Below are positions 17,741 through 55,140 of a DNA stretch of 64,000 nucleotides, piece after piece. Both the position numbers and the translations under genes were made by a program. The notes beneath the pieces were generated by a model, which worked only from the letters and a program-made list of their open reading frames with translations, did not search any database and was not told the DNA's origin. How positions within the stretch are numbered: position 1 is the stretch's first letter; each line of letters starts with the position of its first letter. The stretch is from Promethearchaeota archaeon (GTDB lineage: Archaea > Asgardarchaeota > Lokiarchaeia > Sigyniarchaeales > SOKP01): positions 1 to 64,000 of the forward strand of contig JBHLLU010000001.1 of NCBI GenBank assembly GCA_048938895.1. The letters are read 5' to 3'.

Positions 17741-17796
17741 TTATAATCTATAAAAAAAAATCAAAAAAGAAAATTAAATTTAACATGTGAAGAAAA

Positions 17797-20697: not shown

Positions 20698-20701
20698 TAA
20701 C

Positions 20702-25412: not shown

Positions 25413-25543
25413 ATATTATCACCATATCATGATTTGAGGAAAAATAGGTAACCAAATCTCTACCAATAAAACACATTAGATTATGTATTTAACATTTTAG
25501 TGTAACACTCCAAAAATGTAAAAAAAAAATTTAGTTCTTTATT

Positions 25544-26440: not shown

Positions 26441-26534
26441 AATTTTTCACCATGATGATTAATCTTTTTCAATAATTCAAATTTACTATTTTTCAATGTT
26501 AAACTATTTATAACTATTTATAATCATTGGAGAT

Positions 26535-28457: not shown

Positions 28458-28576
28458 GAAAAATCAATTCTTTTTATTTTTTCTTTTAGTTTTCAAAATT
28501 AAGTAAGTTTAAAGTTTTAGATTGAATTTTATTCATATTAAACTAGAAAAATAATCAAATTTTAGGTTTAAATCAT

Positions 28577-29767: not shown

Positions 29768-29860
29768 TATCCAATAACTTTTTTTTATATTTTTAATATC
29801 TTTTATATTAATTCGTTTTAGTTTTAATTAGAAACTTAATTTTAACGGTTGTTCACAATC

Positions 29861-30649: not shown

Positions 30650-30651
30650 TC

Positions 30652-31653: not shown

Positions 31654-31780
31654 TTTTAACCTCTTAAGTATATCTTAAATTCAGATTTCATAAATATTGA
31701 AGATAGAATTATATTAATTTATCAGAATAATTGAAGCTTAAAGGCCTCTAAGAATGTTTATTAAATACCTATAATTCTTT

Positions 31781-35678: not shown

Positions 35679-36440
35679 TTAAGTTCTTCTATGAATTATC
35701 GTTCTTATTCTTGTTACATCATCTATTGTTAAATTGCGTTTCATATTTTTTTGCTCAAATCGCATATACCCTTTATGATTAATTCCTTGGCATAGATATT
35801 TTTTTGAGTCATCAAGGATAACTTCTTTTCCAAAAATTTGAGAGTGTTCATTGTATTCTTGAATTAAGGTCTTTATCACCATTAAATTATTTTCTGTAAT
35901 TGGAGAATAATATTTATTTGCATAAAAGCATATTTTTTTAGCAAATTTATCAATAGAAACTGGCTTCTTTAGTACATCTTTTATAGATACTGACTTGGAA
36001 CTTAAGCCTTCTGGCATTTTTTTACTTGAATTATTTAAATTTACACCTATACCGATCAAAATATAATTTACTTGAGAGCTTACTATATAATCAATTAATA
36101 TTCCTGCGAGTTTTTTATTTTCATATAAGATATCATTTGGCCACTTAATTTGTGTTTTTAAATTATACTCATTTTCAATAACAAACCTTATTAATGTTGC
36201 AGTAAAAAAATGAAACAATGCTAATTGCGACTTACTCAAAGATGACGTTGATGCTCCAAGAGTAGCCCAAAAACCCCCTTCTGGAGAATACCAATCGTTC
36301 TGCTTTCTTCCACGACCCTTTGATTGTGTTTTTGCAATTAAAAGAAGAGATGAATAATAATCATATTTAAGGTAATCCATTATACTATCTTGGGTAGAAG
36401 TGGTTTGATTAATGTGGATGATCTTTATTTTTTGAAACAT
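35679..36440 (-). CDS. birA: Biotin--[acetyl-CoA carboxylase] ligase (no HTH)
   Basis: STQ, QSKGRGR...W.SP, IKWPND, KLAGIL, GIGVN. Confidence 0.95.
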   Translation of the reverse strand: MFQKIKIIHINQTTSTQDSIMDYLKYDYYSSLLLIAKTQSKGRGRKQNDWYSPEGGFWATLGASTSSLSKSQLALFHFFTATLIRFVIENEYNLKTQIKWPNDILYENKKLAGILIDYIVSSQVNYILIGIGVNLNNSSKKMPEGLSSKSVSIKDVLKKPVSIDKFAKKICFYANKYYSPITENNLMVIKTLIQEYNEHSQIFGKEVILDDSKKYLCQGINHKGYMRFEQKNMKRNLTIDDVTRIRTIIHRRT

Positions 36441-36836: not shown

Positions 36837-38408
36837 ATGACATTGAAAGATGAGAAATCTAATGATAACTTTGAAATAGCAGAAAAGTTGCAAGAGCTTA
36901 GAAATGAGTCTAAGTTAGGGGGTGGAAAAGATAGAATTGATCTTCAACATAAAAAGGGCAAATTAACTGCCCGAGAAAGAATTGAATTGTTAATAGATTA
37001 CGGTTCGTTTAATGAAATTGACTCATTTGTTAAACATCAATCTAATAATTTTGATTTAGTAGATAAGAAATTTCTCGGGGATGGAGTAATTACCGGTTAT
37101 GGTACAATAGAAGGAAGAAAAGTTTTTATTTATAGTCAAGATTTTACTGTGTTAGGGGGAACCATAGGGAAAGCTCATGCTCAAAAAATATGTAAAGTTA
37201 TGAAATTTGCTCTAAAAATGGGTTGCCCAATTATCGGTTTAATAGATTCGGGAGGAGCACGTATACAAGAAGGAGTAAATGCTTTAGATGGATTAGCAGA
37301 AATTTTTTATCAAAATGTTAGAGCATCTGGGGTCATTCCTCAGATTTCTGTTATATTAGGCATTTCTGCTGGGGGAGCTGCTTATAGCCCCGCATTAACA
37401 GATTTTATAATTATGGGTGGAAAGAATACTTCTATGTTTATTACAGGACCCGAAGTGATAAACTCGGTAACTGGTGAAAATGTCACTTTTTCAGAATTAG
37501 GAGGTTCTAAAATTCATTCGTCTGTCTCTGGTGTGTGTCATAAGGCTCTAGACACTGAAGAGGAAGCAATAGAATTCACAAAAAAATTATTATCATATTT
37601 ACCCTCAAATAATTTAGATGATGTCCCTCATTGTTTAGAAGAAATTCAAGTAGATGATGCCTATTTATTGGATCGATTGGTGCCAGAGGATGAAAATGAA
37701 CCTTATGATATGAAAAAGGTAATAGATGTAATAGTAGATCAAAATTCTTTTTTAGAACTATATCCTGAGTGGGCAAAGAATATTGTAATTGGGTTTGGGA
37801 GAATAGAGAATCAAACTGTGGGTCTAATAGCAAATCAGCCTATGTTCCTTAGTGGTGCTCTAGACTACAATGCCTCAGATAAGGCTACAAGATTTATTAG
37901 GTTTTGTGATGCATTTAACATACCTCTCCTTACATTAGTAGATGTTCCGGGTTTTTTGCCAGGAGTGAAACAAGAATATTCTGGAATTATTAGGCATGGA
38001 GCTAAAATGCTTTTTGCATATTCGGAAGCAACGGTATTAAAAATCACTGTCATTATACGAAAGGCATATGGTGGAGCTTATATTGTGATGAGTTCAAAAC
38101 AATTAGGATCTGATGTTAATATAGCCTGGAAATCAGCTCAAATTGCTGTAATGGGTGCTGAGGGTGCGTGTAAGATTTTATTTCGTAATCATTTGAATGA
38201 AGTTGAAGATCCCGATATTCTATTAAAAGATTTTAGTGAGAAATATAAGAGAGAATTTTCAAATCCTTTCCGAGTCGCAGAAAGAGGACAAGTGGATAAG
38301 GTTATCTTTCCACATGAAACTCGAAATGAAATTATTAAAAGTCTGAAATTTTTTGAATCAAAACGGAAACTGCCTCCTCGAAGAAAACATGGGATTTCTC
38401 CAGTTTAA
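36837..38408 (+). CDS. Acyl-CoA carboxylase carboxyltransferase subunit (AccD/PccB-like)
   Basis: KGKLTARERI, QDFTVLGG, DSGGARIQEG, DVPGFLPG, RKAYGGAY. Confidence 0.95.
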   Translation: MTLKDEKSNDNFEIAEKLQELRNESKLGGGKDRIDLQHKKGKLTARERIELLIDYGSFNEIDSFVKHQSNNFDLVDKKFLGDGVITGYGTIEGRKVFIYSQDFTVLGGTIGKAHAQKICKVMKFALKMGCPIIGLIDSGGARIQEGVNALDGLAEIFYQNVRASGVIPQISVILGISAGGAAYSPALTDFIIMGGKNTSMFITGPEVINSVTGENVTFSELGGSKIHSSVSGVCHKALDTEEEAIEFTKKLLSYLPSNNLDDVPHCLEEIQVDDAYLLDRLVPEDENEPYDMKKVIDVIVDQNSFLELYPEWAKNIVIGFGRIENQTVGLIANQPMFLSGALDYNASDKATRFIRFCDAFNIPLLTLVDVPGFLPGVKQEYSGIIRHGAKMLFAYSEATVLKITVIIRKAYGGAYIVMSSKQLGSDVNIAWKSAQIAVMGAEGACKILFRNHLNEVEDPDILLKDFSEKYKREFSNPFRVAERGQVDKVIFPHETRNEIIKSLKFFESKRKLPPRRKHGISPV

Positions 38409-38428: not shown

Positions 38429-41400
38429 ATGAAAAAGAAAGAAAACATCCAAAAAATTTTCAAAAACAAAATTCCTGTTTGGGGCTATTCACCTAAAGGA
38501 GTAACTGATCCCTCACTTTCAATTCAATTATGTCAAGCCGGGGGAATTGGATTAATTGATTTGGAAGGTCTTAATCAAGATCAATGTCAAAATCAAATTG
38601 ATAAACTTTTTTCATCTTTGACTTCCGATCATTTATGGGGTATTCGAATTTCTAATCACAACCTTTTAAATACCCTCAACTTTCGAGATGTTATCCCGAT
38701 TATCGTTTGTGCTTTCTCCCCAAATAAAGATGATATTCAAAGTATGCAAAAAAATTCAAAATTACTTCTTTCTGAAGTCTCATACTTAGAAGAAGCTTAT
38801 GAAACTGCAGAATGGTCAGATTTGTTTCTTGTAAAGGGTCACGAGGCGGGAGGGATTGTTGGCACTAAGAATAGTTTTATACTTATTCAAGAATTTCAGA
38901 AAGCTGGCCTTTCCTTCATTATTCAAGGTGGTTTTGGAGTTTATAATGTATGTTCAGCTTTTATTGGGGGTGCTATAGGTGTTGTATTAGAAAGCCAGTT
39001 ATATTTACTCCCTGAATGCCCGTTGAGTCCAGATTTTAAGAATTACATTAAAACTATTGATGAAAATGATTTCTATATTGTGCAAGAAACGTCTCGATAT
39101 AATTACCGTTTAATTGGTAAATTAGCTAATAAATCAATCCGTACAATAAAGAGTTTTGAACAAAAAAACTATTCAAACGTAAATAATGATTTCGATACTA
39201 ATTACTTAACTCGTAAAGATGATTTTCATCAAGTAATTAAGAAGTTTATAGATAAATTTCCTCTTTATTCTGATTCAGATCCAAAGCATTCATTCTTACC
39301 AAGCGATCATGGTATATGTTTTGCTAATTTCATTTTGACTAAATTTCAGAATTTAGAGAATTTCCTTACGAATATAATTAATATTATTACTAATCAAATT
39401 AAAAATTGTATAAACAATTGGCCATTTACCAAGAATTCTGAGTTTGCGACAAAGTTAGGCATAAAATATCCAATTATTCAGGGACCAATGGCAAATATTT
39501 CTGATAATTTGTCTTTTGCGAGAAAAATATCAAATAATGGAGCCCTCCCTATTTTAGCGCTAGGAGGACTATTACCGGACGAAACATCTGAGCTGTTATC
39601 AAACTGTAATGCTGAAAAATTATCAGAGAATCCATATGGTTGTGGTATCATAGGTTTAGATGCCGTGAAACCTCGTAGAGATGAACATCTTAGATGTATT
39701 TCAAAATTTGGTCCTGAAATTATCTTAATTGCTGCGGGTACAATTGATCTTGGCGTTCAGGTTAAAAATTCAGGTAATATAGTTTTAATCCATACACCTG
39801 CATTATCTATGTTTAAAGAGGCATTAAAAAGAAATCTTAATTACATGATATTAGAAGGTAATGAGTGTGGGGGGCATGTTGGAACACTTTCCTCTTTCAC
39901 TCTCTGGGAACATGTTTTAGAATATATGGATATAGAACGAAAGAATTTTATACAGAAAGTAAATATAATTTTTGCAGGGGGGATAATTAATGGGGTAAGT
40001 TCAGCAATGCTAGCAGGAATGATATCTAATCATTTAGATATAATCACTCCAGGTATCCAGATGGGAACTGCTTATCTTTTAAGTGAAGAAATTGTTACAA
40101 CTAAGGCATTATCCCCTGTTTATCAAGAATTACTTTTAAATAATACATTTACAAATGTTATTGGTGTTACTGTAAATACTCGAGCTAGAGTAATCCCTTC
40201 GGAATTTTCGCTTTATACTATTAAAAATGAGTATTTACGTAAATCAAATGGAATTTCTTTATCCCAAAGAAAGAAATTGTATGAAGAAGACAATTTAGGT
40301 GCTCTTAGAATTGCTTCTAGAGCTGAGATTTGGAACGAGAATCATGAAAAAGTGAGTGGGACGTCTCAATTTATACCGATCTCAACTGAAGAACAATTAA
40401 CCAAAGGTGTTTTTATGACAGGTGATTCAATTTCCCTGCAAAAAACAATTAGAAGTATCCCTCAAATTCATTCTGATATAATTGAAGAAGGTTTGAAATT
40501 TATCAGAAAAAACTCAAATTATATTTTAAAAGAGACGTTAGGTCGTGTGCCTATGAATAAAGAAAAATACTTAAAAAAAATACAATCTATCGGAAATAAA
40601 ATAGCTATTGTAGGAATGGGTGGTTTGTTTCCAGATGCCGAAAACATTCCACAATTTTGGGACAACATCATTAGCAAAAAATATTCAATTACGACAGTCC
40701 CAAAAGATAGATGGGATTCTGATATATTTTATGATAGTGATCATTCCATTCCTGATAAAACATATACAAAGATCGGTGGATTTGTGAAAAAATTTGAATT
40801 TAAATCTATTAAGTATAGAATTCCTCCTAAAATGGCGGATAGGATGGATTTAGTTCAGAAGTGGGCAATAATTACTGCAGAAGAAGCTTTAATTGATGCT
40901 GGTTATCCTATTGATGGGAAAAAACGATTATCTATAGCTACTATTGTTGGTAACTCTTCAGGAGGAGATACGCAGCGTATTAGCAACAAACGGATATTAT
41001 TTAACGAAATTAAATATAGATTAAATGAAGCAAGTTCCCAAATGATTTTAAAACCTGAAGAAAAAGAAAATCTTCTTAAATTCCTCGAAAGTAAAATTAT
41101 TAATCATATTCCTGTGATTAATGAGGATACGATGCCTGGTGAATTGGCAAACATAATTGCAGGAAGAGTAGCAAACGTGTTTAATTTAACTGGTAAGAGC
41201 ATGACTACTGATGCTGCATGTGCTTCAAGTTTAGCTGCGATTGACACAGCAGTAAACGGATTATTAGTCAAGGATTATGATACAGTTCTTGTAGGAGGGG
41301 TTGATAGTTCGATGGACCCTCAAACATATATTAAATTCTGTAAGATAGGTGCCTTGTCTGAAGATGGTACTTATCCTTTTGATTCTCGTGCAAATGGATT

Positions 41401-44400
41401 TGTCATGGGCGAGGGTGCAGGATTTATAGTTTTAAAGCGACTTGAAGATGCTTTACATGATAAGAATAAAATCTATGCGATTATTAGTGGATTTGGAGGG
41501 TCTTCAGATGGAAAAGGAAAAGGTATAACTGCACCTAATCCTGAGGGACAAAGATTAGCTATTGAGAGAACCCTGGAAAATACTAATTTAAGCCCTTCAG
41601 ACATTCAATACCTTGAGTGCCATGGAACATCAACTATTGTTGGTGATGCCACCGAATTAAGTGTATTAAGCCAAATTTTTTCTGATCGAAATGTAAATCA
41701 AAAACTTGCATTAGGCTCAATAAAAAGTCAAATAGGGCATCTTAAAAGTGCAGCAGGTATAGCTAGTATTATTAAAACGGTATTAGCGTTATATAATAAA
41801 ATCATACCTCCATCCATTAACGTTTCAAATTTAAATCCCACAATAAATTGGGAAAATGCTCCTTATTATGTGAATACGGAACCAACTAAATGGTCAACAC
41901 CTGAAAATGGAATAAGAAGAGCAGGAGTTTCCTCATTTGGATTTGGAGGTACAAATTATCATGTAATCTTAGAAGAATTTTTACCACATCTATACACAAA
42001 TGTCTTAACTGAAAGAGCTGAGGATTTTCCGTTATGTGAAGAATTAATGTATAAACAATTTGAATCTCATCAAGACAATTCTATTATTCCTTCTTCCACT
42101 GATCTATGTTTTTTATTTAGTGGTCAAGGAAGCCAATATGTTGGGATGACTCGAGAGTTATATGAAAAATATCAAGTGGTTAAAAATACACTTAATAAAG
42201 CAAATGATATATGTAAAGAGTTTGGTAGTTTTAATTTATTAAAAATCATTTTTGGGGATAATAATTTATCTCAAGAAGAAAACTCAGATAAGTTAAAACA
42301 GACAGAATTTACTCAACCAGCTATCTATTCAGTTGAGATGGCTTTAGTTAATCTATTTAAATCAAAAGGGATTACCCCAGGGATTGTTGGAGGGCATAGT
42401 TTAGGAGAATTCGCAGCTTTAGTCACAGCAGGAGTATTAAGTTTTGAGGATGGATTGAAAACAGTAATTAGAAGAGGAATTTCAATGTCTGAATTACCTC
42501 CTGGTGTTCAATGCACCATGGCAGCGATATTTACATCACCAGATATAGTTGAGAAAACCCTTAATGAGTTATCTAATGAAGATGTCTCCATTTCAAATTA
42601 TAACTCTACTTCTCAGACGGTTATATCTGGTGAAATTTCTGCAGTCGAATCTATTATGGATGCATTTTCAAAGAAAGAAATTCGAGCAATAAGATTAAAT
42701 GTTTCGAATGCATTTCATTCTAAGTATGTAGCCCACGCTGAGGAAAAATTAAAAGACTTTTTAAAAACAATTGAATTTAAATCCCCTCAAATTCCAGTCT
42801 TTAGTAACGTGACGGGAAAGGTATATCCTAATGATCCTGATAAGATAAAATCAATCTTACTTAAACAGATAACCTCTCCCGTTAGATGGGTTGACGAAGT
42901 ATTAAATATGTATCAAAAAGGAGGAAGAAAATTCTTAGAATTAGGACCAAAAAAAGCTCTTTTCTTTTTTACCAAAGATATCTTGAAAAAGTATAAAGAT
43001 ATTGAGGTTAATTTTACTCTTTCACCAAAATCTTCAGAGAAAGATCATATTCAAAAAGTTTTTGATAGGTTCTCAGCTTTAGAATCAATCAGTCAAAAAG
43101 AAAGAGTTGAAATTGAGTATCCTTCCATTAAAGATAAGAAAATAAAAATATCGAGACAAGCAGAATCATCCATTATAAAGAGAGATACTTTAAGATCGAA
43201 TGAATATTTATCTAAAATTGTGCAACTTCCATCATTTAAGGATTTTCTAGAAGAACAAAAGGTTTCTCTATCTTCTGCTTTGATGGAAGGATTTTATAAA
43301 TATCTTGAGAAGAATAGTACTTCTATTGATAATCAATTTAATAAGGGTGATATAGATTCTACTCCCATTGTAATCACGGGTGTAGGTATTGGGCTTCCTG
43401 GCAAAAATCGTAAAGTTTTTGATGATAAAAATGTAGATGATATTTTAGATGGAATAAACTTAATCGATTTGGTAAGTACAGAATCTCAAAATCAATTGCT
43501 CCAAAAAAAAATCATACGTTTGGAAAAATCTCCGAATGGTAATGCAAAATTTGTTTCTGTAGATGACATTTCTAATGTAATTCACCTAGCAGGACAACTT
43601 GGAGAATTCAATCCCAATGAAGATTACCATCTAAATCCTAAGTTGTTGAATGCCTTAGATATCACATTTCAAATGGCAATCTGTGCAGGATACGATGCAC
43701 TTAAGGATTCAGGTATTCCATTAGTCCGCAGTACCATTAAAACTTCAACAGGAAAGACTTTGAGTGGAGATTGGATATTACCAGAATCATTACAGGATGA
43801 CACTGGCATAATTTTTGCATCCGCTTTCCCAGGATACGATAATTTTGTTGAAGAATTCCGGAAATATTCTAATTTTGATTGTGATCAGAAAAAGTCTATT
43901 GAAGAAAATGATAAAAATTTTAATCGTTCATTTTTGTTCAGAGTGTTATCTATGGGGCATTCTCAGTTTGCTCAATTAATAAAAGCAAAAGGTCCAAATA
44001 CCTCTACGAATGCTGCATGTGCCTCTACTCCTCAAGCTATAGGTATTGCTGAAGATTGGATACGCAATGGAAGATGTAAACGAGTCATTGTGATTACAGC
44101 AGACAATGTAACAAGTCGTAACCTTTTTCAATGGATAGGTGCAGGTTTTATTGCTAGCGGAGCCGCTACAACTAAAAATCGATGGGAAGATGCTGTACTT
44201 CCATTTGGAGAAGGAAGGAATGGAATTATTTTAGGTGCTGGTGCTAGTGCATTCGTAATCGAACAGCAGATGGAAGCTGAAGCTCGAGGTGTTAAACCAA
44301 TTGTTGAAATATTAGGTTCATATTTCGCAAATAGTGCCTTTCATGGTACCCGATTAGATAAAGATCATATTTCTCAAAAACTCGAAGAATTTATACAAAA

Positions 44401-47400
44401 GATTGAGAGAACATATGATATTACTAGAGAAGAATTGGCAAAGGAAGGAATGTTTGTGAGTCATGAAACTTACTCTCCAGCCCGAGGAGGAAGTGCTGAA
44501 TCGGAATTGATTGCTTTAAGAAACACGTTTGGAAATTATGCTCAAGATATGGTTATTATCAACACGAAAGGATATACTGGTCATGCAATGGGGGCTGGAA
44601 TTGAAGAAGCTGTCGCTATCAAGTCACTTGAAAAAGGGAAAATCCCACCAATAGCAAATTTGAATAGAATTGACCCAAATTATTCAAATTTCAACTTTTC
44701 AGCTGGAATAAATGAAAGGAAGAAATATGCTTTACGTTTTGCTGCAGGATTTGGATCTCAATTAGCAATTGTTCTATTTCGTCTAAAGTCATTCAATAAC
44801 CGTTTTGCAAATCCAAATTACCAAAAATGGCTTCAAAGCATAGGTGGAGACGAAAAATTAATATTTATCGATGGAAGACTTCTAAAAATGAAAACTGAAC
44901 GTGTTCCCCTCAAAAAAGCTACTATCTTTTCTACAGAAACAACTGAAAGTTCCCAGAAAGTAATTCCTTCTGGAACAAGTGAAATTCTGAATGAGATCAA
45001 ATACATAATTAGTTTAAAAACTGGGTATGATCCAGCTGATATTGATGATACATTCGATTTAGAGGAAGATCTAGGAATTGATACTGTAAAACAGGCAGAA
45101 ATATTTGGTGAAATTAAAAAAAAATGGGATATTGAAGTGGATGATTCATTTAATTTAGCAGATTATCGCACAATTAATGAAATTGTCCAAATGTTGAATG
45201 ATTTCTTAAGGGTAGATCTTATAACTGAAAATGATTTTTCTTGTCTCAATGAATTTTCGCTTGAAAAAGAATTAATAAATATAATTTCTGAAAAGACAGG
45301 ATATGATATTGAAGACATCGACATTGAATTTGATTTAGAGGAGGATCTTGGGATTGATACAGTAAAACAAGCTGAGATATTTGGGGCGCTTCGGAGTAAT
45401 TTGAACATCCCAGAGGACACTGAAATCAATCTATTAGGATTAGGAAGTATTAAAAATATAATTCAAAAAATACAAGTATTAATGAGTGACAAGATTATTG
45501 ATGGAAAATTAACTCAAAATATCTATACTCCTATTGAAGTACCTGATGACATAAAACAAATAAATAATTTAGTAAAAAAAATTATTGCAGAAAAAACAGG
45601 GTATGACCTTAATGACATTGATGACTTATATGACTTAGAGGAAGACTTGGGAATTGATACAGTGAAACAGGCCGAAATCTTCGGAGAATTACGTAATCAT
45701 TACAAACTAGAAGATTCCATTGAGATTAACATATCTGAAATTCGCACTCCAAATGATATTACTCAATTTATAATGCAATATTTCAATGAGAAATCCAAAA
45801 TCGTTGAAAAAGACTTAGGAACGACTGGAAGCGTAGATAAAGTTCAAGAAGAGATAAAAGAGGAAAAACAAGATAGTATTTATGTTTCACAAGTTGTCCC
45901 CTCTCAAATTTTTAAATTAGAAACCCCAGAAATAGATTTGAAATATAAAAGTACGGATACTTTACTCCTTAATATTAATTTAGGGTTATCAAATTACGGA
46001 AAATTGATAAAAAGTTTTGAAAACTATGGCTTAAAAATTCAAGTATTAAATGTTAATAGTGATGAAAATTTTTCTAGTGATCTTAACAATAAAAAACATG
46101 ATTCTCTATTCAATACTGATTTTAAAATACTTCTATTGGTCACTCCAGATAATAATCAATACACTATAGATGATAGTTTAAGCATCTTTGATAATCTATT
46201 CCTTATTTTTCAATCATTAAATTTATCAATAATCGAAAGAATATTAGTGCTTTCTCCAGAAACTACTTTTGGTTGGGAAGAAGGAGCCAATCCTCTTTCT
46301 GCTAGTATAAGTGCCTTTATAAAAACAATAAATCGCGAATTTAAAATTCCGATTAAACTAATTTCTTCAAAGAATCTAAGTAAAATTTCTCAGGAGTTTC
46401 TTACTTGGGATACTGTTGAAGAAGTTTCCTATGTAGATAATTTTCGTTATACATTATTAAGACAGAAAATTGAGGTACTCCCAGAACAGAATCCTTTATC
46501 AATAACGGAAGAAGATGTATTATTGGTCACTGGAGGTGCACAAGGAATCACTTTTGCATGCATCGATGAATTAACAAACTATACTAAACCACAGTTAATT
46601 CTTATGGGACTAGCTTCTTACGAAAATTCATTGAACGAATATTTAAATTATACTCCAGAAATGTTGAATGAGAAAAAGCTAGAATTGGTTAACAAGTTGA
46701 AATCTGAACATAAAAGAGTAACTCCTGTCATGATAAATAAAGAATGGAAAAATTTTCTCGACAAACTAGATACTCTAAGAAATATTGAAAAATTGAGAAG
46801 TAAAGGTCTTAAAGTGCAATATTTTGCGGGGGATATTACCGATGATGAATTTGTAAGCACTACACTCCAAAAAAGTTATAAACAAAATAAAAATCCAATA
46901 ACAATTGTTATCCATGGAGCTGGAATTGAAGAATCAAAAAATTTCTTAAATAAAAAATTAAATGTGGCTCATAAAGTTGTTGATGTCAAAGTTGGAGGAT
47001 TTTCAAATATTCTGAAGCATATAAAGCTTCAAGATGTTAAATATTTCATAGCCTTCTGTTCAGTTGCAGGTCGTTATGGAAATCAAGGACAAATAGATTA
47101 TGCTTTTGCAAATTCTTATTTATCTCGGTTAGCTTGGAAATTCAATCAAGATAAAATTCCTTTTCTTATTTTTGATTGGACTGCTTGGGCTGACATTGGA
47201 ATGGCAACTCAGGGTTCGACTCTTCAAATTCTTACTCAAGCAGGTGTTAGGCCTGTCCCATCCAAAACTGGTGTTAAAATATTTACAAAGTTAGTACTAA
47301 ATAATTTTACTGGTGAATACGTCATTGCTGGAGAATTAGGAATATTTGAGGAGAAGCTTCGTATAGAGGAGGTTATTAGCAAGTTAGAATATCCTATGTT

Positions 47401-48973
47401 AGAGAGAATTAATTATCAGTCAGCTCGTATTATTGGATACAACACAATTGATTCTAAATTCGATGTATATCTTCTAGATCACCAAATTCAACGGAAACCA
47501 GTATTTCCAGGAGTAATGGTTTTAGAAACATTTGCAGAATTTTATCATCGAATGTTTGATAAACCATTAACCTCAATCTCTAATGTAAATTTTCTTACGC
47601 CCTTGAAAATCCCAATAGATAAAACTATTAATATAGAACTAATTTTTAATAAATCTAATAACGAAATTTCTTTCCAATCAAAGACTTTTCCCACTATCTT
47701 GAAAGGAAAACCTCTTGTTAAAGAACGTTTCAATGCTAAGTTCAATGAACCTACAAATGAGCTGAAGTGGAAAAAAGAATCTATTTCGGAGCCGTTAATA
47801 TCACTACTCGAGAAAACCGAAATTTATGAGCTTTTCTTTCATGGACCAAAATTTCAGGTTTTAAAAGAAGTTATTCAATTAGAAAAAGAAAAAATTGTTA
47901 CGATGGTTGACTTACCTACAGCCCCTCTTATTAATAATAAGGAGGATCAATTTCAAATTAAACCTTTGATACTTGAAAGTGTTTTTCAAACCGCTGCACT
48001 TTTTGATTTTATAATTAATGGTTATCTTTCACTTCCCTCTAAAATTTCAATCTTGAAAATATTATCAAATCAAAAGCCTAAATATATAGTCGCTAAATTT
48101 TTAAAGAGGGATGATGAGAAATCTTATTACAATTCAGTAGTGCTAAGTGAAGATCAAGAAATAATAGTAATAATGGAAAATTTAGAAATTATCCATGCAC
48201 CAATGGCAAAAAATATCTCTCCTAATCTATCTAATTATTTAGGTACATTAAAGGAGTATTATCACCTTAAAAATAACATAAATAAGCATGAGATTCATGT
48301 CCTTCCTATCACAAAGATACATAATTTATATCAAACCAATCCTAAATTTTTGGATTATTACCTTACTGAACAAGAAATAGATAACTCCAAGCGTTTTAGA
48401 AATTTAAAAAGAAAAATCGAATATTTTTCTGGAATCATCGCAGCAAAAGAATTGTATTTTAGAAATTCGTACAAGCGTGAGTCTTATCACGATATTGAAA
48501 TTCAAAAAGATGATAAAGGTAAACCATTTTATTTTTCAAATAAATTGAATCAAATTATTCCGCTTAATCTTTCAATTAGTCATTCAAACGAATTTTCAGT
48601 TGCAATTAATGGTAAAAATTTGGTTGGTATTGATCTAGAGATAATTGAATTCCGATCATCTTCATTTTACAAAGAGGTATTTACTGAATTAGAGAGAAAT
48701 GCTATTTCAGAAGATAATCAATTAGGAACAATTTACTGGACAGCTAAAGAAGCCTTCTCAAAAGCAATAGGGGAGGGTTTTAATATTAATTTTAAAGATT
48801 TTGAATTGAAATACGAGGAAAAGCACAAAAAATTCACAATATCATTCAAAAATGAAAAATCTGAATTCAATGATAATCTTAGATCTTTACAATTGGGAGT
48901 TGATTATACCAAGAAGTATGTTTTATCATATTGCGAGTTGAAACCATTTAAAGAAATTCCAACAATCCAGTGA
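38429..48973 (+). CDS. Type I FAS/PKS megasynthase: 2x FMN enoyl-reductase-like, KS, AT, second KS, 3x ACP, KR, DH, PPTase
   Basis: KGHEAGG and QGPM/EGNECGGH/GIQMGT (FabK/NMO barrels); DAACASS/HGTST/KSQIGHL (KS); GQGSQ/GHSLG/AFHS (AT); NAACAST/SHET/TGHAMG (KS2); 3x DLGIDTVKQ; TGGAQGI/DYAFAN (KR); DHQ...FPG (DH); SISHS/GIDLE/WTAKEA (PPTase). Confidence 0.95.
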   Translation: MKKKENIQKIFKNKIPVWGYSPKGVTDPSLSIQLCQAGGIGLIDLEGLNQDQCQNQIDKLFSSLTSDHLWGIRISNHNLLNTLNFRDVIPIIVCAFSPNKDDIQSMQKNSKLLLSEVSYLEEAYETAEWSDLFLVKGHEAGGIVGTKNSFILIQEFQKAGLSFIIQGGFGVYNVCSAFIGGAIGVVLESQLYLLPECPLSPDFKNYIKTIDENDFYIVQETSRYNYRLIGKLANKSIRTIKSFEQKNYSNVNNDFDTNYLTRKDDFHQVIKKFIDKFPLYSDSDPKHSFLPSDHGICFANFILTKFQNLENFLTNIINIITNQIKNCINNWPFTKNSEFATKLGIKYPIIQGPMANISDNLSFARKISNNGALPILALGGLLPDETSELLSNCNAEKLSENPYGCGIIGLDAVKPRRDEHLRCISKFGPEIILIAAGTIDLGVQVKNSGNIVLIHTPALSMFKEALKRNLNYMILEGNECGGHVGTLSSFTLWEHVLEYMDIERKNFIQKVNIIFAGGIINGVSSAMLAGMISNHLDIITPGIQMGTAYLLSEEIVTTKALSPVYQELLLNNTFTNVIGVTVNTRARVIPSEFSLYTIKNEYLRKSNGISLSQRKKLYEEDNLGALRIASRAEIWNENHEKVSGTSQFIPISTEEQLTKGVFMTGDSISLQKTIRSIPQIHSDIIEEGLKFIRKNSNYILKETLGRVPMNKEKYLKKIQSIGNKIAIVGMGGLFPDAENIPQFWDNIISKKYSITTVPKDRWDSDIFYDSDHSIPDKTYTKIGGFVKKFEFKSIKYRIPPKMADRMDLVQKWAIITAEEALIDAGYPIDGKKRLSIATIVGNSSGGDTQRISNKRILFNEIKYRLNEASSQMILKPEEKENLLKFLESKIINHIPVINEDTMPGELANIIAGRVANVFNLTGKSMTTDAACASSLAAIDTAVNGLLVKDYDTVLVGGVDSSMDPQTYIKFCKIGALSEDGTYPFDSRANGFVMGEGAGFIVLKRLEDALHDKNKIYAIISGFGGSSDGKGKGITAPNPEGQRLAIERTLENTNLSPSDIQYLECHGTSTIVGDATELSVLSQIFSDRNVNQKLALGSIKSQIGHLKSAAGIASIIKTVLALYNKIIPPSINVSNLNPTINWENAPYYVNTEPTKWSTPENGIRRAGVSSFGFGGTNYHVILEEFLPHLYTNVLTERAEDFPLCEELMYKQFESHQDNSIIPSSTDLCFLFSGQGSQYVGMTRELYEKYQVVKNTLNKANDICKEFGSFNLLKIIFGDNNLSQEENSDKLKQTEFTQPAIYSVEMALVNLFKSKGITPGIVGGHSLGEFAALVTAGVLSFEDGLKTVIRRGISMSELPPGVQCTMAAIFTSPDIVEKTLNELSNEDVSISNYNSTSQTVISGEISAVESIMDAFSKKEIRAIRLNVSNAFHSKYVAHAEEKLKDFLKTIEFKSPQIPVFSNVTGKVYPNDPDKIKSILLKQITSPVRWVDEVLNMYQKGGRKFLELGPKKALFFFTKDILKKYKDIEVNFTLSPKSSEKDHIQKVFDRFSALESISQKERVEIEYPSIKDKKIKISRQAESSIIKRDTLRSNEYLSKIVQLPSFKDFLEEQKVSLSSALMEGFYKYLEKNSTSIDNQFNKGDIDSTPIVITGVGIGLPGKNRKVFDDKNVDDILDGINLIDLVSTESQNQLLQKKIIRLEKSPNGNAKFVSVDDISNVIHLAGQLGEFNPNEDYHLNPKLLNALDITFQMAICAGYDALKDSGIPLVRSTIKTSTGKTLSGDWILPESLQDDTGIIFASAFPGYDNFVEEFRKYSNFDCDQKKSIEENDKNFNRSFLFRVLSMGHSQFAQLIKAKGPNTSTNAACASTPQAIGIAEDWIRNGRCKRVIVITADNVTSRNLFQWIGAGFIASGAATTKNRWEDAVLPFGEGRNGIILGAGASAFVIEQQMEAEARGVKPIVEILGSYFANSAFHGTRLDKDHISQKLEEFIQKIERTYDITREELAKEGMFVSHETYSPARGGSAESELIALRNTFGNYAQDMVIINTKGYTGHAMGAGIEEAVAIKSLEKGKIPPIANLNRIDPNYSNFNFSAGINERKKYALRFAAGFGSQLAIVLFRLKSFNNRFANPNYQKWLQSIGGDEKLIFIDGRLLKMKTERVPLKKATIFSTETTESSQKVIPSGTSEILNEIKYIISLKTGYDPADIDDTFDLEEDLGIDTVKQAEIFGEIKKKWDIEVDDSFNLADYRTINEIVQMLNDFLRVDLITENDFSCLNEFSLEKELINIISEKTGYDIEDIDIEFDLEEDLGIDTVKQAEIFGALRSNLNIPEDTEINLLGLGSIKNIIQKIQVLMSDKIIDGKLTQNIYTPIEVPDDIKQINNLVKKIIAEKTGYDLNDIDDLYDLEEDLGIDTVKQAEIFGELRNHYKLEDSIEINISEIRTPNDITQFIMQYFNEKSKIVEKDLGTTGSVDKVQEEIKEEKQDSIYVSQVVPSQIFKLETPEIDLKYKSTDTLLLNINLGLSNYGKLIKSFENYGLKIQVLNVNSDENFSSDLNNKKHDSLFNTDFKILLLVTPDNNQYTIDDSLSIFDNLFLIFQSLNLSIIERILVLSPETTFGWEEGANPLSASISAFIKTINREFKIPIKLISSKNLSKISQEFLTWDTVEEVSYVDNFRYTLLRQKIEVLPEQNPLSITEEDVLLVTGGAQGITFACIDELTNYTKPQLILMGLASYENSLNEYLNYTPEMLNEKKLELVNKLKSEHKRVTPVMINKEWKNFLDKLDTLRNIEKLRSKGLKVQYFAGDITDDEFVSTTLQKSYKQNKNPITIVIHGAGIEESKNFLNKKLNVAHKVVDVKVGGFSNILKHIKLQDVKYFIAFCSVAGRYGNQGQIDYAFANSYLSRLAWKFNQDKIPFLIFDWTAWADIGMATQGSTLQILTQAGVRPVPSKTGVKIFTKLVLNNFTGEYVIAGELGIFEEKLRIEEVISKLEYPMLERINYQSARIIGYNTIDSKFDVYLLDHQIQRKPVFPGVMVLETFAEFYHRMFDKPLTSISNVNFLTPLKIPIDKTINIELIFNKSNNEISFQSKTFPTILKGKPLVKERFNAKFNEPTNELKWKKESISEPLISLLEKTEIYELFFHGPKFQVLKEVIQLEKEKIVTMVDLPTAPLINNKEDQFQIKPLILESVFQTAALFDFIINGYLSLPSKISILKILSNQKPKYIVAKFLKRDDEKSYYNSVVLSEDQEIIVIMENLEIIHAPMAKNISPNLSNYLGTLKEYYHLKNNINKHEIHVLPITKIHNLYQTNPKFLDYYLTEQEIDNSKRFRNLKRKIEYFSGIIAAKELYFRNSYKRESYHDIEIQKDDKGKPFYFSNKLNQIIPLNLSISHSNEFSVAINGKNLVGIDLEIIEFRSSSFYKEVFTELERNAISEDNQLGTIYWTAKEAFSKAIGEGFNINFKDFELKYEEKHKKFTISFKNEKSEFNDNLRSLQLGVDYTKKYVLSYCELKPFKEIPTIQ
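44980..45785 (+). repeat. Three tandem ACP-domain repeats within the megasynthase
   Basis: KTGYD...DLEEDLGIDTVKQAEIFG repeated three times; Thr codons at 45083, 45359 and 45659. Confidence 0.9.
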
Positions 48974-49761
48974 TAGTAATGAGAAAAGAAGTGATTGAAG
49001 TAGAAGTTCGATCTGAAATTCTGCAAGGAGTACTCTATTTACCTGATGAAAAAGATCCAAAAATTAGTGAATGTAATCCATTTCCAATCGTGATTCGTGT
49101 TAATGGAATGCCTGGTAAATCTCCCGAAGAAGATGAAACGAGATTTGCCCATCTTTTTGTTAACAATGAATTTGCTTATTTCACTTATGATCACCAAGGT
49201 GTGAGGAAAAGTACCGGTATTTTTACTTATTATGACGCTCAAGCAAATATCGAAAATGTAATAAATCAGTTAGTGCATCATCCTGAGATGAATCCTATTA
49301 AAATTGGCCTGTTAGGAGAAAGTTTTGGGGGTGCAATGGCTTTTTGCCATACTGTAAGAGATAAACGTGTTAAATGTCTTGCTATACGTTCTCCTGTTTT
49401 TGATACAGAAATTATTCCAAAGAATCCTCTTTTTAAATTTTTCATCAAAGCATTAACACGTAATAAAAAAATGCGATTTCCCGAAGGAGATCTCAAAAAA
49501 AAGTATGCTGAACAAACAAGACAATATAATCCCAATAGATTAGCGGATAAATTAGCAAAACCTTTCTATCTGATTGCAGGAAATAAGGATGTTTTATTTC
49601 CAGAATCTGGTTTTCATCAACTCTTTAATAAAGTCAAGTCTGAAAATAAAAAAATTGAAATAATTGATGGAGCTGATCATAACTTTACAGATAAAAATCA
49701 TTTTCACCTAATGCGTAAAAATATTATTGATTTCTTTAGATTTCATCTTATAGTAAATTAA
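48970..49761 (+). CDS. Alpha/beta hydrolase, putative standalone thioesterase
   Basis: GESFG nucleophile elbow, GNKD, GADHNF triad; start overlaps the synthase stop (GTGA). Confidence 0.8.
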   Translation: MIVMRKEVIEVEVRSEILQGVLYLPDEKDPKISECNPFPIVIRVNGMPGKSPEEDETRFAHLFVNNEFAYFTYDHQGVRKSTGIFTYYDAQANIENVINQLVHHPEMNPIKIGLLGESFGGAMAFCHTVRDKRVKCLAIRSPVFDTEIIPKNPLFKFFIKALTRNKKMRFPEGDLKKKYAEQTRQYNPNRLADKLAKPFYLIAGNKDVLFPESGFHQLFNKVKSENKKIEIIDGADHNFTDKNHFHLMRKNIIDFFRFHLIVN

Positions 49762-49773: not shown

Positions 49774-50271
49774 ATGCCGAAAAAAGTTAAATTTCGAGGA
49801 AGGAATTATATAGTTACTCCATTAGATAATGGGAAAATAAAAGTAGATGACCATATTTATGCCCCGGTAGTCATTCAAGAAACAGAGAATTTATTTCGAG
49901 TAACATTTGAAGATTGTCAGTTTAATTTGGAATTTATAAACGGGGTTTTATATTTAGAGGGTGAAGAAATCGATATTGAAATTAAACCATATTTAAAATC
50001 AGTAGATAATAACTATGAAAGCCCACAAATCACGGACGTAATTATAAAAGCTCCTATTCCAGGGAAAATATTAGAAATCCACGTCGAAGAGGAGGAATAT
50101 ATCGAAAAGGAACAGTTATTATTAATTTTAGAAGCAATGAAAATGAAAAATCGAATATTGTCTCCAAGAAAAGGGAAGATAATCCAAATATTAGTGAATG
50201 AAGGGGATATCGTTGGACAAGATCAAAAGTTAATTAAAATTGAAAGTAGAAATAATGTAAAGGGTATATAA
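49774..50271 (+). CDS. accB: Biotin carboxyl carrier protein
   Basis: APIPGKI, LEAMKM biotinylation motif, GDIV. Confidence 0.93.
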   Translation: MPKKVKFRGRNYIVTPLDNGKIKVDDHIYAPVVIQETENLFRVTFEDCQFNLEFINGVLYLEGEEIDIEIKPYLKSVDNNYESPQITDVIIKAPIPGKILEIHVEEEEYIEKEQLLLILEAMKMKNRILSPRKGKIIQILVNEGDIVGQDQKLIKIESRNNVKGI

Positions 50272-50292: not shown

Positions 50293-51783
50293 TTAACGTA
50301 TTTGCTCTATTTTAGCGACATCTCGCCATTTATTTGATTTTTTCTTTTGTGTTTCTTCAGGTTGAGTTGATAATTTAAATTGCTTAAATAATTGAAAAAC
50401 TGCTGCCAATTTTTTTCTTTCTAAATCTTTTAAATTATTAGCAATGTTTGTTTTATTTAAGAAATCAGTTGATAAATCTCCCTTTCTAAATTCACGAGAA
50501 TCTACTATTACTTTATGTAAATCTAAATTCGTTTTTATTCCTGAAATAACTAATTCTTTTAGGGTATGTTTAGAGAGATTGATTGCCCTTTTTCGATTTC
50601 TACCCCACACCACCAATTTCCCTATCAATGAGTCAAAATCATGAGGAACTACATAATTAGGGTACAAATAACTATCAAAACGCACTTTTGGTCCCCCTGG
50701 TATGATTAAATTTGTAATTTTTCCATGTTGGGGAAAGAATGAATTATATGGATCTTCAGCATTTATCCTATATTCTATAGCATGTCCATGTAATGAGATT
50801 TCCTCTTGAATATAATTTAATGGTTTATTTGAGGCAATGCTTATTTGTTCCTCAACCAAATCTATTCCTGTTACCATTTCTGTAACAACATGTTCTACTT
50901 GGATTCTTGGATTTACTTCATTAAAATAGATATTACCCTCCTTCCATAGAAATTCTGCTGTTCCCACATTTGAATAATTTAATTCACGAGCTAACTGACA
51001 AGTTTTATCTCCTAATTTAGAGATTTCATCCCTTGTTAAAAATGAGGGTGCTTCCTCAATAAGTTTTTGATGAGATCGTTGGATAGTACATTCCCGATCT
51101 CCTAAATATATAATATTACCAAAATTATCTCCAATAAATTGAATTTCTACATGACGAGGTGCCATAATAGACTTTTCAATAAAAACTTCATTGCGACCAA
51201 AAAACTTTGATCCCATTTCTTGACAACCTTGGAGTGCAATGCCCATTTCTTCTTCAGATTCAACAATTTCCATTCCTCGACCACCACCTCCAAAGGCTGC
51301 TTTTATTATTACAGGATATCCGATCTTATCTGCTATTAATTTAGCTTCCTCTAAACTACGAATAAATCCATCTGAACCAGGTAAAACGGGTAAACCGACA
51401 CTTTTTGCTAGGATTTTTGCTTTAATTTTATTACCTAAAAATTCAATGGTATTTGGGCTTGGACCGATAAAAATCTTACCAAGATTAATAATTTGTTTTG
51501 CAAATTCTGCATTTTCGCTCAAAAAACCATATCCTGGATGGATTGCATCTGCATCACACCGTTTAATTATTTCAACTAGTTTTGAGATGTTAAGATATGT
51601 ACCCTGAATTGATTCATCTCCTAAATTATATGCCTCATCTGCCATTTTTACGTGAAGAGAGTTTTTGTCTGACTCAGAAAAAATTGCTATTGATTTAATC
51701 TCTTTTGATCGACATGCTCTGATAACTCTAACTGCAATCTCTCCACGATTAGCAATTAAGACAGATTTGATCATACAACACAA
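50293..51783 (-). CDS. accC: Biotin carboxylase
   Basis: LIANRGEIAVR, HPGYGFLSEN, GGGGRGM, RECTIQR, EVNPRIQVEH, RINAEDP. Confidence 0.96.
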   Translation of the reverse strand: MCCMIKSVLIANRGEIAVRVIRACRSKEIKSIAIFSESDKNSLHVKMADEAYNLGDESIQGTYLNISKLVEIIKRCDADAIHPGYGFLSENAEFAKQIINLGKIFIGPSPNTIEFLGNKIKAKILAKSVGLPVLPGSDGFIRSLEEAKLIADKIGYPVIIKAAFGGGGRGMEIVESEEEMGIALQGCQEMGSKFFGRNEVFIEKSIMAPRHVEIQFIGDNFGNIIYLGDRECTIQRSHQKLIEEAPSFLTRDEISKLGDKTCQLARELNYSNVGTAEFLWKEGNIYFNEVNPRIQVEHVVTEMVTGIDLVEEQISIASNKPLNYIQEEISLHGHAIEYRINAEDPYNSFFPQHGKITNLIIPGGPKVRFDSYLYPNYVVPHDFDSLIGKLVVWGRNRKRAINLSKHTLKELVISGIKTNLDLHKVIVDSREFRKGDLSTDFLNKTNIANNLKDLERKKLAAVFQLFKQFKLSTQPEETQKKKSNKWRDVAKIEQIR

Positions 51784-53244: not shown

Positions 53245-55140
53245 TTACTCTTCTAATTGTTCAATTTCTAAGATGAAAAGATTCGCAATGGTAATCCATT
53301 TCTGTTTTGTTTCCGTATCTAGAGAACTTTTTTCTATTAACTTCATCCCTTCTGTAAGGTACTCGACTGTTCGTTCTAGATCTTTAAGTTCTTTATAACA
53401 AATTCCAAGTTTAATATAGGTTTGAGGAATATACCATTCCTCACTTGCTAATTCTATTGCTGTTAAAAATTCTTCTATAGCATTTTCATACTCTTCAAAA
53501 TACATCAGGATTTCTCCATAAGTATCATGATACATCCCGTTATTGGGAAAGGTCTCTACAAGTTTCGAAATTATGGCAAGGGATTCATCCTTTCTATCCA
53601 AATATTGGAGCCAATAAGCTTTATAACTGATAAGGTCATTCTTTTTTGGATATTTTTCTATTAATTCATCAATAATTTCTAATCCTGCATTTATCTCCTG
53701 CATTCTTCTCAAAACAGATGCCTTTTTCATCCCAATATCAAGTTCTTCTTCTGGGAAAATTTCTAACATTTCATCTAATAGGCTTAAGACCTCATCGAAT
53801 TGATTATAATAGATCAAAATTCTAATTTTTGAATGATATAAGTCAAGATTCTCAGGATCGGATTTAATTTGTTTATCGATTTTCCTAATCTCTTCTATGT
53901 AGTCTTCCTGTAAATCTTCAATAGTTTTAGTTTGAAAAATATCTATCATATCCTGCCAAATAATTCCTTCTAATTTATCATAAGTCTCTTTTAATTCTAC
54001 TTTTGCTTCAATCTTATACGCTAAATAGTTAATGTACTGAGGTAAGAATTTGCGTAATGACTCCTTTAAGTCCTCATGGAACAATAAGCTACAAATATCT
54101 TCTAATATTTCATTTATAGTATTTCTTATATTAAGTGGTCTCGAAAACAATTTATTCAAATAGGTAAATTTAGTGATATAATCTTCTGTTATAGCTCTTA
54201 ACATTATTTCCAGTCTTTCACCCTCCTGAAAATAATAAATCAAATCTCCTGATGAAATTTTGAAAAATTTAATTGGAAAAATTTGATTTTCAATGATCTC
54301 GTCTATATAATAATTTAATTTCGATTCTTTAATTTTAAAAGTTCTTGAAAAGTCTTCTGGAGAGATATAATCAGGATACTGACTTGGATGGTTAATTGAG
54401 ACAAAGAGTAAAATCTTATCGAAATCCTCTTCATTCGTTAGCATTGATTCAACTCTAGTATAATCTAATTTTAACATATTATTTAAAAAGCGAAATTGTA
54501 CATCCTCATCTGAAATATCATATCGTTCGAAAAATTTGATAGTTTTTATAGTTATCTCTTCAATTCTCTTGCTTTCTTCTTCCAATATCGATTGCTTATC
54601 CAAGTCATAATTTTCTAACATCCTAGAATATTCTAATTTACCCGAACGGGTAATTCTGTATTTCTTTTCCTCTTTCTCTATAATTCCTTTATCAAGTAAC
54701 AAATTTATATTCTTAGATAAAGAGGATTGATTTATAGAAAGTGGTTCTGCCAAGAAATCAGCCCATTTGCAATAATTATTATTATAAACCATCCAAAGAA
54801 TCCAATGATCATAATTTCTTCTTCTTTTAATTATTGTAGGAGGATAGCTTAAGGATCTTTTTTTCCCTTTCGATTGAGAAAGTTCAAGATACCTCTTTCT
54901 GCCCTCTGAAGTAATTTTATAATGACCTCTAGAAATATTTTCTACATGACCCCTTCCCTTTAAAAGAGAGAGATATTTTGATAATGTTGATAATCTAAGC
55001 TCAAGTGGTTCTTGAGTGAAATCGGCCCACTCGCATTCATCATTGTTATACACCATCCATAGAATGATATGCTCAAAATTTTTTTTCTCTATTACTGGAG
55101 GTTTATAAATCTCCTTAGGAGGATAATTTACTTTGCTCAT
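53245..55140 (-). CDS. Tandem winged-HTH plus C-terminal TPR protein (putative regulator)
   Basis: Two repeats of ILWMVYNN..C.WADF..EPL....S.LSK...L...G......Y.IT..G; TPR-like C-terminus (YHDTYGEIL, KLGICYKEL). Confidence 0.8.
   Translation of the reverse strand: MSKVNYPPKEIYKPPVIEKKNFEHIILWMVYNNDECEWADFTQEPLELRLSTLSKYLSLLKGRGHVENISRGHYKITSEGRKRYLELSQSKGKKRSLSYPPTIIKRRRNYDHWILWMVYNNNYCKWADFLAEPLSINQSSLSKNINLLLDKGIIEKEEKKYRITRSGKLEYSRMLENYDLDKQSILEEESKRIEEITIKTIKFFERYDISDEDVQFRFLNNMLKLDYTRVESMLTNEEDFDKILLFVSINHPSQYPDYISPEDFSRTFKIKESKLNYYIDEIIENQIFPIKFFKISSGDLIYYFQEGERLEIMLRAITEDYITKFTYLNKLFSRPLNIRNTINEILEDICSLLFHEDLKESLRKFLPQYINYLAYKIEAKVELKETYDKLEGIIWQDMIDIFQTKTIEDLQEDYIEEIRKIDKQIKSDPENLDLYHSKIRILIYYNQFDEVLSLLDEMLEIFPEEELDIGMKKASVLRRMQEINAGLEIIDELIEKYPKKNDLISYKAYWLQYLDRKDESLAIISKLVETFPNNGMYHDTYGEILMYFEEYENAIEEFLTAIELASEEWYIPQTYIKLGICYKELKDLERTVEYLTEGMKLIEKSSLDTETKQKWITIANLFILEIEQLEE

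Follow-up and report, generated by a model that had tools for sequence, protein, structure and literature searches.

Type R clusters were described by Shulse and Allen (2011; PMC3098273). According to the accessible text of that article, such a cluster contains one pfaA homologue with the domain order ketosynthase (KS), malonyl acyltransferase (MAT), chain-length factor (CLF), acyl carrier protein (ACP, 3–6 copies), and ketoreductase (KR), followed by a 4′-phosphopantetheinyl transferase (PPTase) gene, and its product is not known; in Koribacter, an acetyl-CoA carboxylase (ACC) gene lies between the pfaA homologue and the PPTase gene; and the hosts are Acidobacteria, Elusimicrobia, and Chloroflexi. 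The DNA analyzed here, referred to as the window, comprises 64,000 nucleotides of a Promethearchaeota archaeon (positions 1 to 64,000 of contig JBHLLU010000001.1, assembly GCA_048938895.1), and it encodes a synthase with the same KS-MAT-'CLF'-ACP(3–6)-KR order in one protein. The open reading frame (ORF) at 38429..48973 (+) is translated without a stop into a megasynthase of 3514 amino acids (aa), P0001, in which Pfam and NCBIfam place, in order, an NMO/FabK-like enoyl reductase (ER), KS1, an acyltransferase (AT), KS2, three ACPs, a KR, a polyketide synthase (PKS)-type dehydratase (DH), and an ACPS-family PPTase, the ER, DH, and PPTase being additions to the Type R set. All three ACPs carry threonine at the position that accepts phosphopantetheine. 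Serine is treated as the universal acceptor in the carriers of fatty acid synthases, PKSs, and non-ribosomal peptide synthetases, a rule on which annotation tools and the calling of ACPs as active or inactive depend. We estimate with a probability of about 0.7, from sequence and predicted structure, that the ACPs of P0001 are working carriers of a self-contained, iterative type I 'Type R' pfaA-like synthase with phosphopantetheine on Thr, because Thr occupies the Ser position, is kept by selection, and swaps with Ser in orthologous arrays, and because the sole PPTase and the sole carriers share one ORF in six of six Asgard genomes.

Threonine at the acceptor position of the carrier domains

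The motif DLGIDTVKQ occurs three times in P0001 (starting at residues 2214, 2306, and 2406), and the ORF translation and codon coordinates agree exactly with the original prediction, which had reported T2219, T2311, and T2411 with the codons ACT, ACA, and ACA. When each domain was scored alone against PF00550 (PP-binding), all three exceeded the cut-off of 20.8 bits (Table 1). HMMER alignments to PigH (5y08), the ACP of T. maritima (6lvt), and AcpM (1klp) place the Thr of P0001 on the GxDS serine; the conserved Ser of the (D/E)xGxDS motif that marks ACPs is thus missing, with Thr in its place in all three domains. In the AlphaFold model of ACP1, which has a small helical-bundle fold, helix II begins with the Thr, and Foldseek matches the model to ACPs of E. 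coli, B. subtilis, and mycobacteria with TM scores of 0.83–0.88. The ACP alignment contains no conserved Ser; two further near-invariant Thr are present at fragment positions 14 and 64, neither of them at the start of helix II.

Pairwise identity among the three domains is only 50–53%, and the DNA of their motifs shows synonymous differences, so that they do not represent one copied error. Contigs from other public runs (X2, X4, and X5) have the same letters at the first two Thr codons where these are covered; for the third codon, independent coverage reaches only 45660, by one X5 piece. A sequencing or assembly artefact, or a recent private inactivating mutation, is refuted by the three sites with two codons, by hundreds of homologues, and by the agreement of independent contigs, which also bears out the earlier remark that the Thr is not a single error.

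The original prediction had mentioned similar DTVKQ motifs in some bacterial synthases, and this proved right, the motif being widespread. A first protein search was seeded by words of the ACP region, and all 120 listed proteins had DLG[IV]DT[VI]KQ in nearly every ACP. Because this search is motif-biased, three samples were drawn via KS domains, without the ACP motif. In sample (a), KS2 was searched against 301 Asgard genomes, which gave 30 loci including that of P0001, 29 of them with ACP motifs; the acceptor was Thr at 66 sites (ACT 30, ACA 21, ACC 9, and ACG 6) and Ser at 6 (AGT 5 and TCT 1). In sample (b), KS2 was run exhaustively with HMMER against 1.84 billion cluster representatives; 7468 of them matched at E ≤ 0.001, and the residues were tallied in the best 150 of these, representatives at 50% clustering: 346 sites had Thr, 17 had Ser, and 9 had a gap or another residue; counted by protein, 115 were Thr-only, 5 Ser-only, 2 had both residues, 8 had a gap or another residue at one site or more, and an ACP was not detected in the remaining 20 (fragments or stand-alone KS2). 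Sample (c) consisted of 80 GTDB loci found via two KS1 peptide patterns, 14 of them short loci without an ACP; the 66 loci with ACPs contained 226 Thr, 2 Ser, and 6 gap or other sites, and 60 of the 66 were Thr-only. The Thr sites of sample (c) are spread over 11 named phyla, namely Acidobacteriota (108), Actinomycetota (48), Elusimicrobiota (26), and Chloroflexota (16), together with Myxococcota, Gemmatimonadota, Pseudomonadota, Rhodothermota, Heimdallarchaeota, Promethearchaeota, and Methanobacteriota. Over the three samples, Thr makes up ~95% of the acceptor sites and is found in at least 14 phyla. Tandem arrays in the family have 2–8 ACP copies, and the GxD(T)VKQAE face of helix II is, judging from the alignments, kept by purifying selection with synonymous codon turnover. 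The nearest homologues, with 60–66% identity over the ACP region, are labelled by their sources as Promethearchaeota, Lokiarchaeum, Thorarchaeota, and Hodarchaeota. Cultured organisms with a member of the family include Desulfoluna butyratoxydans and, as given in PMC3098273, Roseiflexus, Elusimicrobium minutum, Koribacter, and Solibacter; the distribution of the synthase within Asgard archaea is patchy, with KS2 in 52 of the 301 sampled genomes, 17 of 70 genera, and 4 of the 22 other genomes of the archaeon's own genus.

Ser is found at the same column and in the same motif context, as in DLGIDSVKQAEIL of P0216. Arrays with the order S-T-S occur in L033, L034, and L037 (Ca. Heimdallarchaeum aukensis), S-T-T-S in L029, and S-T-T-T-T-T in P0112 and P0055. 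A FastTree phylogeny built from 231 KS2 domains requires nine changes to account for the nine proteins with Ser; in an IQ-TREE phylogeny of a 67-row subset (the nine Ser-bearing proteins, their nearest neighbours, and 30 random others), nine changes are again needed and well-supported branches force at least seven. Every Ser-bearing protein is a scattered tip nested among Thr-only relatives. In our reading, Thr is the ancestral state and is maintained by selection, whereas Ser has returned now and then and been tolerated; the Ser codons seen represent both codon families (AGT and TCT), and each is a single step from ACT.

Carriers and phosphopantetheinyl transferases in the host genomes

The genome of the archaeon (G000; 4.65 Mb, 174 contigs, 98.7% complete, 7.5% contamination) was searched with Pfam profiles in six frames, searches that are free of the bias of a profile seeded from Thr-type domains. 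PF00550 found only the three ACPs of the synthase among 19 scored candidates, PF01648 found only the fused PPTase, and PF00109 found only KS1 and KS2 plus a weak match of 22.7 bits in a thiolase; another carrier domain, PPTase, or KS was not found in this genome by these searches. In five more Asgard genomes from five genera, hand-picked among carriers of the synthase, all matches to PF00550 and PF01648 likewise lie inside one large ORF. A separate Ser-type ACP, on which homologous clusters might have relied in place of the Thr domains, was thus looked for with PF00550 in six Asgard genomes and not found. PF01648 is matched in 110 of the 301 Asgard genomes, more than the 52 with KS2. Other Asgard families (f9 and f24), which lack the megasynthase, have at loci L115–L118 (genomes G259, G244, G005, and G075) a small stand-alone AcpS-like ORF of 150–190 aa and, ~2 kb from it, a carrier protein of 78–87 aa with a Ser motif (WDSM).

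Meanwhile, five bacterial genomes with the synthase were searched: three of Elusimicrobiaceae/Elusimicrobiales, one Ca. Avelusimicrobium, and one labelled Eggerthellaceae. All 18 synthase ACPs have Thr and all 10 carrier domains outside the synthase have Ser; the ten are five AcpP-like domains with DLGADSLDTVEL, one peptidyl carrier protein (PCP) with GGTS, two canonical pfa-type domains with DLGIDSIKRVEIL, and two others. In G301, G302, and G304 (the genomes of L042, L043, and L047), the sole PF01648 match adjoins the Thr-type synthase and each genome has a Ser-type AcpP-like carrier, so that, if these metagenome-assembled genomes (MAGs) are complete, the same PPTase also loads a Ser-type AcpP. 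One Elusimicrobia MAG (G305, the genome of L064; contig C121, 60553-61023) has two synthases, a canonical pfa-type one with DLGIDSIKRVEIL carriers in a 2052-aa ORF and a Thr-type one.

The model of the fused PPTase domain has a predicted local distance difference test (pLDDT) score of 88.3 and a two-lobed, pseudo-dimeric Sfp-type fold of ~230 aa; among PDB entries it matches the Sfp-CoA-PCP complex best (4mrt_A, E 7e-13) and human AASDHPPT (2cg5) next, with TM scores of 0.72–0.75. GxDxE and WxxKExxxK are invariant in 27 aligned PPTases (G119, D121, E123, W156, K159, E160, and K164); the domain carries LSISH and is thus of the P1b′ (hShxH) kind, as this motif is defined in the accessible text of PMC3098273, and no NCBIfam equivalog was reached for it. 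PPTases in the loci were scored by a profile built from fused PPTase domains. In sample (c), 5 of the 66 ACP-bearing loci have a PPTase of this clade fused to the synthase, and 47 encode one as a separate ORF of the locus. None was found in 14 loci; in 12 of these the contig ends at the synthase, and in the remaining two the downstream sequence amounts to only 2.8 and 5.9 kb. All-Ser arrays, too, can be fused to a PPTase of this clade, as in P0134 (six Ser) and P0216 (four Ser), and so can mixed arrays. A Thr-specific PPTase clade was considered and dropped for this reason, and also because the clade supplies the sole PPTase beside a Ser-type AcpP in the three bacterial MAGs, with their possible incompleteness as a caveat.

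The original prediction had proposed to check whether Thr-type ACPs co-occur with a distinct PPTase clade and had suggested that Thr explains the dedicated cis PPTase. The co-occurrence itself holds, the clade being fused or adjacent in 52 of the 66 loci, and the link between PPTase and synthase is real in this sense; the clade also serves all-Ser and mixed arrays, however, and Thr by itself is not the explanation. Ser-type pfa clusters, too, have a PPTase gene, pfaE, according to the accessible text of PMC3098273. With no other PPTase found in the archaeon, the synthase needs its own regardless of Thr. The PPTase of the family probably accepts both Ser and Thr. In addition, the catalytic Cys and His residues of KS1 and KS2, the AT Ser, the KR Tyr, and the DH His are invariant across the synthase alignment, and from these residues together with the PPTase motifs the enzyme looks functional.

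Probable phosphopantetheine on threonine and the alternatives

Several points weigh against Thr-bound phosphopantetheine. E. coli ACP(S36T) is reported, in the accessible part of PMC3340395, to be incapable of 4′-phosphopantetheine modification and not functional, so that a PPTase taking Thr would be unusual, and biochemical or mass-spectrometric evidence of Thr loading was not found in the searched literature. Ser at ~5% of the sites means that Thr is not obligatory, and in the mixed arrays the Ser domains may be the only active ones. The ACP profile used for samples (b) and (c) was built from Thr-type seeds, and although it found Ser domains within the family, it may miss divergent ones; similarly, six-frame Pfam searches may miss very divergent carriers, and the genome of the archaeon has 7.5% contamination and 174 contigs.

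The behaviour of ACP(S36T) would fit Thr domains that stay unmodified and act as structural or decoy spacers, the synthase being inactive or using CoA-bound or otherwise carried intermediates. This is improbable: it leaves a conserved synthase without a carrier in six Asgard genomes where no other carrier domain was found, it leaves a fused or adjacent PPTase with intact catalytic motifs without a substrate, and it sits poorly with arrays of two to eight copies that keep their helix-II face under purifying selection in synthases with invariant catalytic residues. If instead only Ser could be loaded, Thr would mark silenced copies, and the synthase would depend on the few copies with Ser or on a Ser carrier from another locus; mixed arrays such as those of L029, L033, L034, L037, P0112, and P0055 are what this predicts, but Thr-only proteins are the rule (115 of the 130 KS2-selected representatives with ACPs and 60 of the 66 GTDB loci), the genome of the archaeon has three Thr carriers and no Ser carrier was found in it, and the Ser proteins are scattered tips among Thr-only relatives, the reverse of what Ser as the working ancestral state would give, which makes this account less probable still. 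The third alternative is that Thr bears a non-standard group, either another CoA-derived group or a direct O-acyl link. Beyond the fact that the acceptor is non-canonical, nothing direct speaks for it, and its probability is very small: in fold and in CoA/Mg-binding motifs, the PPTase linked to the synthase is an ordinary one of the Sfp type, and the KS, AT, KR, and DH domains are of thioester-using kinds.

Thr phosphopantetheinylation, which the original prediction had put forward, accordingly remains the best-supported reading. The fused Sfp-type PPTase would take phosphopantetheine from CoA and attach it, in every ACP, to the hydroxyl of the Thr that opens helix II, and in most bacteria the PPTase of a neighbouring gene would carry out the same transfer. 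The tandem holo-ACPs would then serve KS1, KS2, AT, KR, DH, and ER in an iterative cycle, and the adjacent hydrolase would release a reduced acyl chain, a product suggested by the domain set. It may be speculated that Thr is preferred as insulation from the housekeeping AcpS or from ACP phosphodiesterase, or for a more stable phosphodiester. A wider proposal holds that Thr-O-phosphopantetheine is native in the whole of an ancient family, that the PPTase clade uses a secondary alcohol, that Thr became fixed as insulation from AcpS and ACP hydrolases to give a natural orthogonal pair, and that this is the only ACP system in Asgard archaea, driving a bacterial-type fatty-acyl synthase; taken as a whole, it has about an even chance of being right.

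The family itself was catalogued in 2011, whereas the searchable literature does not appear to mention the Thr acceptor. The words 'threonine' and 'serine' have no occurrence in the main text of Shulse and Allen (PMC3098273), the accessible part of a bioRxiv preprint on the DSL motif makes no mention of Thr at the acceptor site, and full-text searches of open-access and bioRxiv papers turned up neither the motif nor a Thr acceptor nor a comparable synthase from Asgard archaea, a report in a subscription journal being possible. If Thr loading is true, it is a large natural exception to a textbook rule, and many 'inactive' ACP calls are wrong. A Ser/Thr-tolerant PPTase clade together with carriers that E. 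coli AcpS may ignore would offer a possible orthogonal pair for labelling or pathway insulation. The cassette of ACC, synthase, PPTase, and hydrolase would probably be functional in Asgard archaea without another ACP, PPTase, or KS, which bears on fatty-acid making by these archaea and on the lipid-divide debate.

The cassette, its neighbours, and comparison with known systems

As shown in Table 1, the synthase is flanked by genes for an acyl-CoA carboxylase carboxyltransferase subunit, a biotin carboxyl carrier protein, a biotin carboxylase, a protein of the biotin/lipoate ligase family, and an alpha/beta hydrolase, the last being a candidate chain-releasing thioesterase. The cassette recurs in distant relatives. 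In Heimdallarchaeum (L037), the order is carboxyltransferase, synthase, hydrolase, and biotin carboxyl carrier protein (BCCP); in Elusimicrobiales (L046), synthase, PPTase, and carboxyltransferase; and in Acidobacteriaceae (L051), a WS/DGAT gene is followed by the synthase, a 1895-aa multidomain acetyl-CoA carboxylase, the PPTase, and a hydrolase. With such a gene set the cassette is self-sufficient in malonyl-CoA supply and in PPTase, and it likely includes a release enzyme.

Table 1. Positions of the synthase domains, the acceptor codons, and the neighbouring cassette genes in the window. A1 denotes the synthase alignment.
Feature	Coordinates	Strand	Support
Biotin/lipoate protein ligase family gene	35679..36440	-	PF03099
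Acyl-CoA carboxylase carboxyltransferase subunit, directly upstream of synthase	36837..38408	+	PF01039, 596.6 bits; also adjoins synthase in L037 and L046
N-terminal enoyl-reductase region, NMO/FabK-like, ~residues 1-700	38429..40528	+	PF03060, three stretches; TIGR03151 FabK-type match at residues 338-693
KS1, residues 723-1132	40595..41824	+	PF00109/PF02801; C931, H1065, and H1104 invariant (A1)
Acyltransferase, residues 1228-1528, GHSLGE	42110..43012	+	PF00698; S1324 invariant
KS2, second KS-like domain ('CLF' of Type R clusters), residues 1646-2123	43364..44797	+	Second PF00109 stretch; C1864, H2012, and H2052 invariant (A1)
ACP1	44981..45208	+	PF00550, 30.2 bits; model pLDDT 91.8; Foldseek ACP matches
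Thr2219 codon ACT, Ser position of ACP1	45083..45085	+	
ACP2	45257..45478	+	PF00550, 24.6 bits
Thr2311 codon ACA, Ser position of ACP2	45359..45361	+	
ACP3	45557..45793	+	PF00550, 26.5 bits
Thr2411 codon ACA, Ser position of ACP3	45659..45661	+	
Ketoreductase, residues 2698-2922	46520..47194	+	PF08659; Y2891 invariant
PKS-type dehydratase, residues 3004-3254	47438..48190	+	PF21089, PF14765; H3018 invariant
Fused Sfp-type 4′-phosphopantetheinyl transferase domain, ~residues 3282-3514	48272..48970	+	PF01648 (ACPS), 60.7 bits, above cut-off; model pLDDT 88.3
Alpha/beta hydrolase, start overlaps synthase stop	48970..49761	+	Pfam; same gene follows synthase in L037; alpha/beta hydrolase after PPTase in L051
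Biotin carboxyl carrier protein	49774..50271	+	PF00364
Biotin carboxylase	50293..51783	-	PF02786, PF00289, PF02785

Some details of these loci were also recorded. In L037 (CP084166.1, 9989-26517), the synthase is read as two overlapping ORFs (9989-14518 and 14352-22538), and the downstream hydrolase and BCCP (22573-23838) recur as a tandem duplicate at 25270-26517, which is preceded by a separate 208-aa PPTase ORF (24611-25234). Upstream of the cassette in the window, a beta-oxidation-like block (27111-33010) contains a thiolase, an acyl-CoA dehydrogenase, the beta and alpha subunits of an electron-transfer flavoprotein, and a second thiolase. Near the cassette, two large paralogues (53245-55140 and 56534-59068, both on the - strand) have winged-helix DNA-binding domains (HTH_45 and HTH_34) and TPR repeats; three multi-PAS histidine kinases of 755–1132 aa lie within 16 kb (9491-11860, 15140-17407, and 22014-25412, all on the - strand). 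The window also holds an eIF-1A gene and four genes for small GTPases of the Ras/Roc family (20702-21895, 55967-56521, 61150-61713, and 61867-62418), one of which is extended at its N terminus by 160 aa; multiple Ras-family small GTPase genes are typical of Asgard genomes.

Among named families, P0001 scores best against PfaA (TIGR02813 of NCBIfam) with 882.5 bits, below the cut-off of 1010.1, which its bacterial relatives P0026 (1211) and P0004 (1139.1) pass. P0001 and PfaA both have tandem ACPs, whose helix-II motifs are almost the same, and both follow the order KS-AT-ACPn-KR-DH, but P0001 has the extra KS2; the canonical pfa-type motif, seen in the 2052-aa ORF of G305, has Ser where P0001 has Thr, and DLGIDSIKRVEIL is what we take to be the motif of the characterized PfaA proteins. 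Genes for PfaC (KS-CLF-FabA-type DH) and PfaD were not seen among the neighbouring ORFs scanned, no dedicated search having been made. The enediyne PKSs (PKSE; KS-AT-ACP-KR-DH-PPTase) are a precedent for a C-terminally fused PPTase on an iterative synthase, and their carrier uses Ser. ApbE, which is unrelated in fold and substrate, forms an FMN-phosphoryl-threonine bond and is a precedent for a Thr hydroxyl that receives a phosphoryl group derived from a nucleotide. Compared with AcpP and AcpS of E. coli, the ACPs of P0001 have the same carrier fold and would be expected to undergo the same chemistry, whereas the housekeeping system, as far as the accessible part of PMC3340395 describes it, appears to reject Thr. 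The PPTase domain has the same fold and motifs as the Sfp-type enzymes Sfp (4mrt) and AASDHPPT (2cg5); unlike them, it is fused to its synthase and its acceptor would be a Thr hydroxyl.

In architecture, P0001 matches the Type R clusters, and their host phyla, as listed in the accessible text of PMC3098273, are those that dominate the loci sampled here. P0001 differs from them in the ER fused at its N terminus, the PPTase fused at its C terminus, and the Asgard host. Stand-alone KS2 paralogues of 500–560 aa are also present in some Asgard genomes, e.g., G148:C190 and G003:C1. The 'CLF' of P0001, that is, KS2, keeps an invariant Cys-His-His set and may be, instead of a chain-length factor, a second active ketosynthase.

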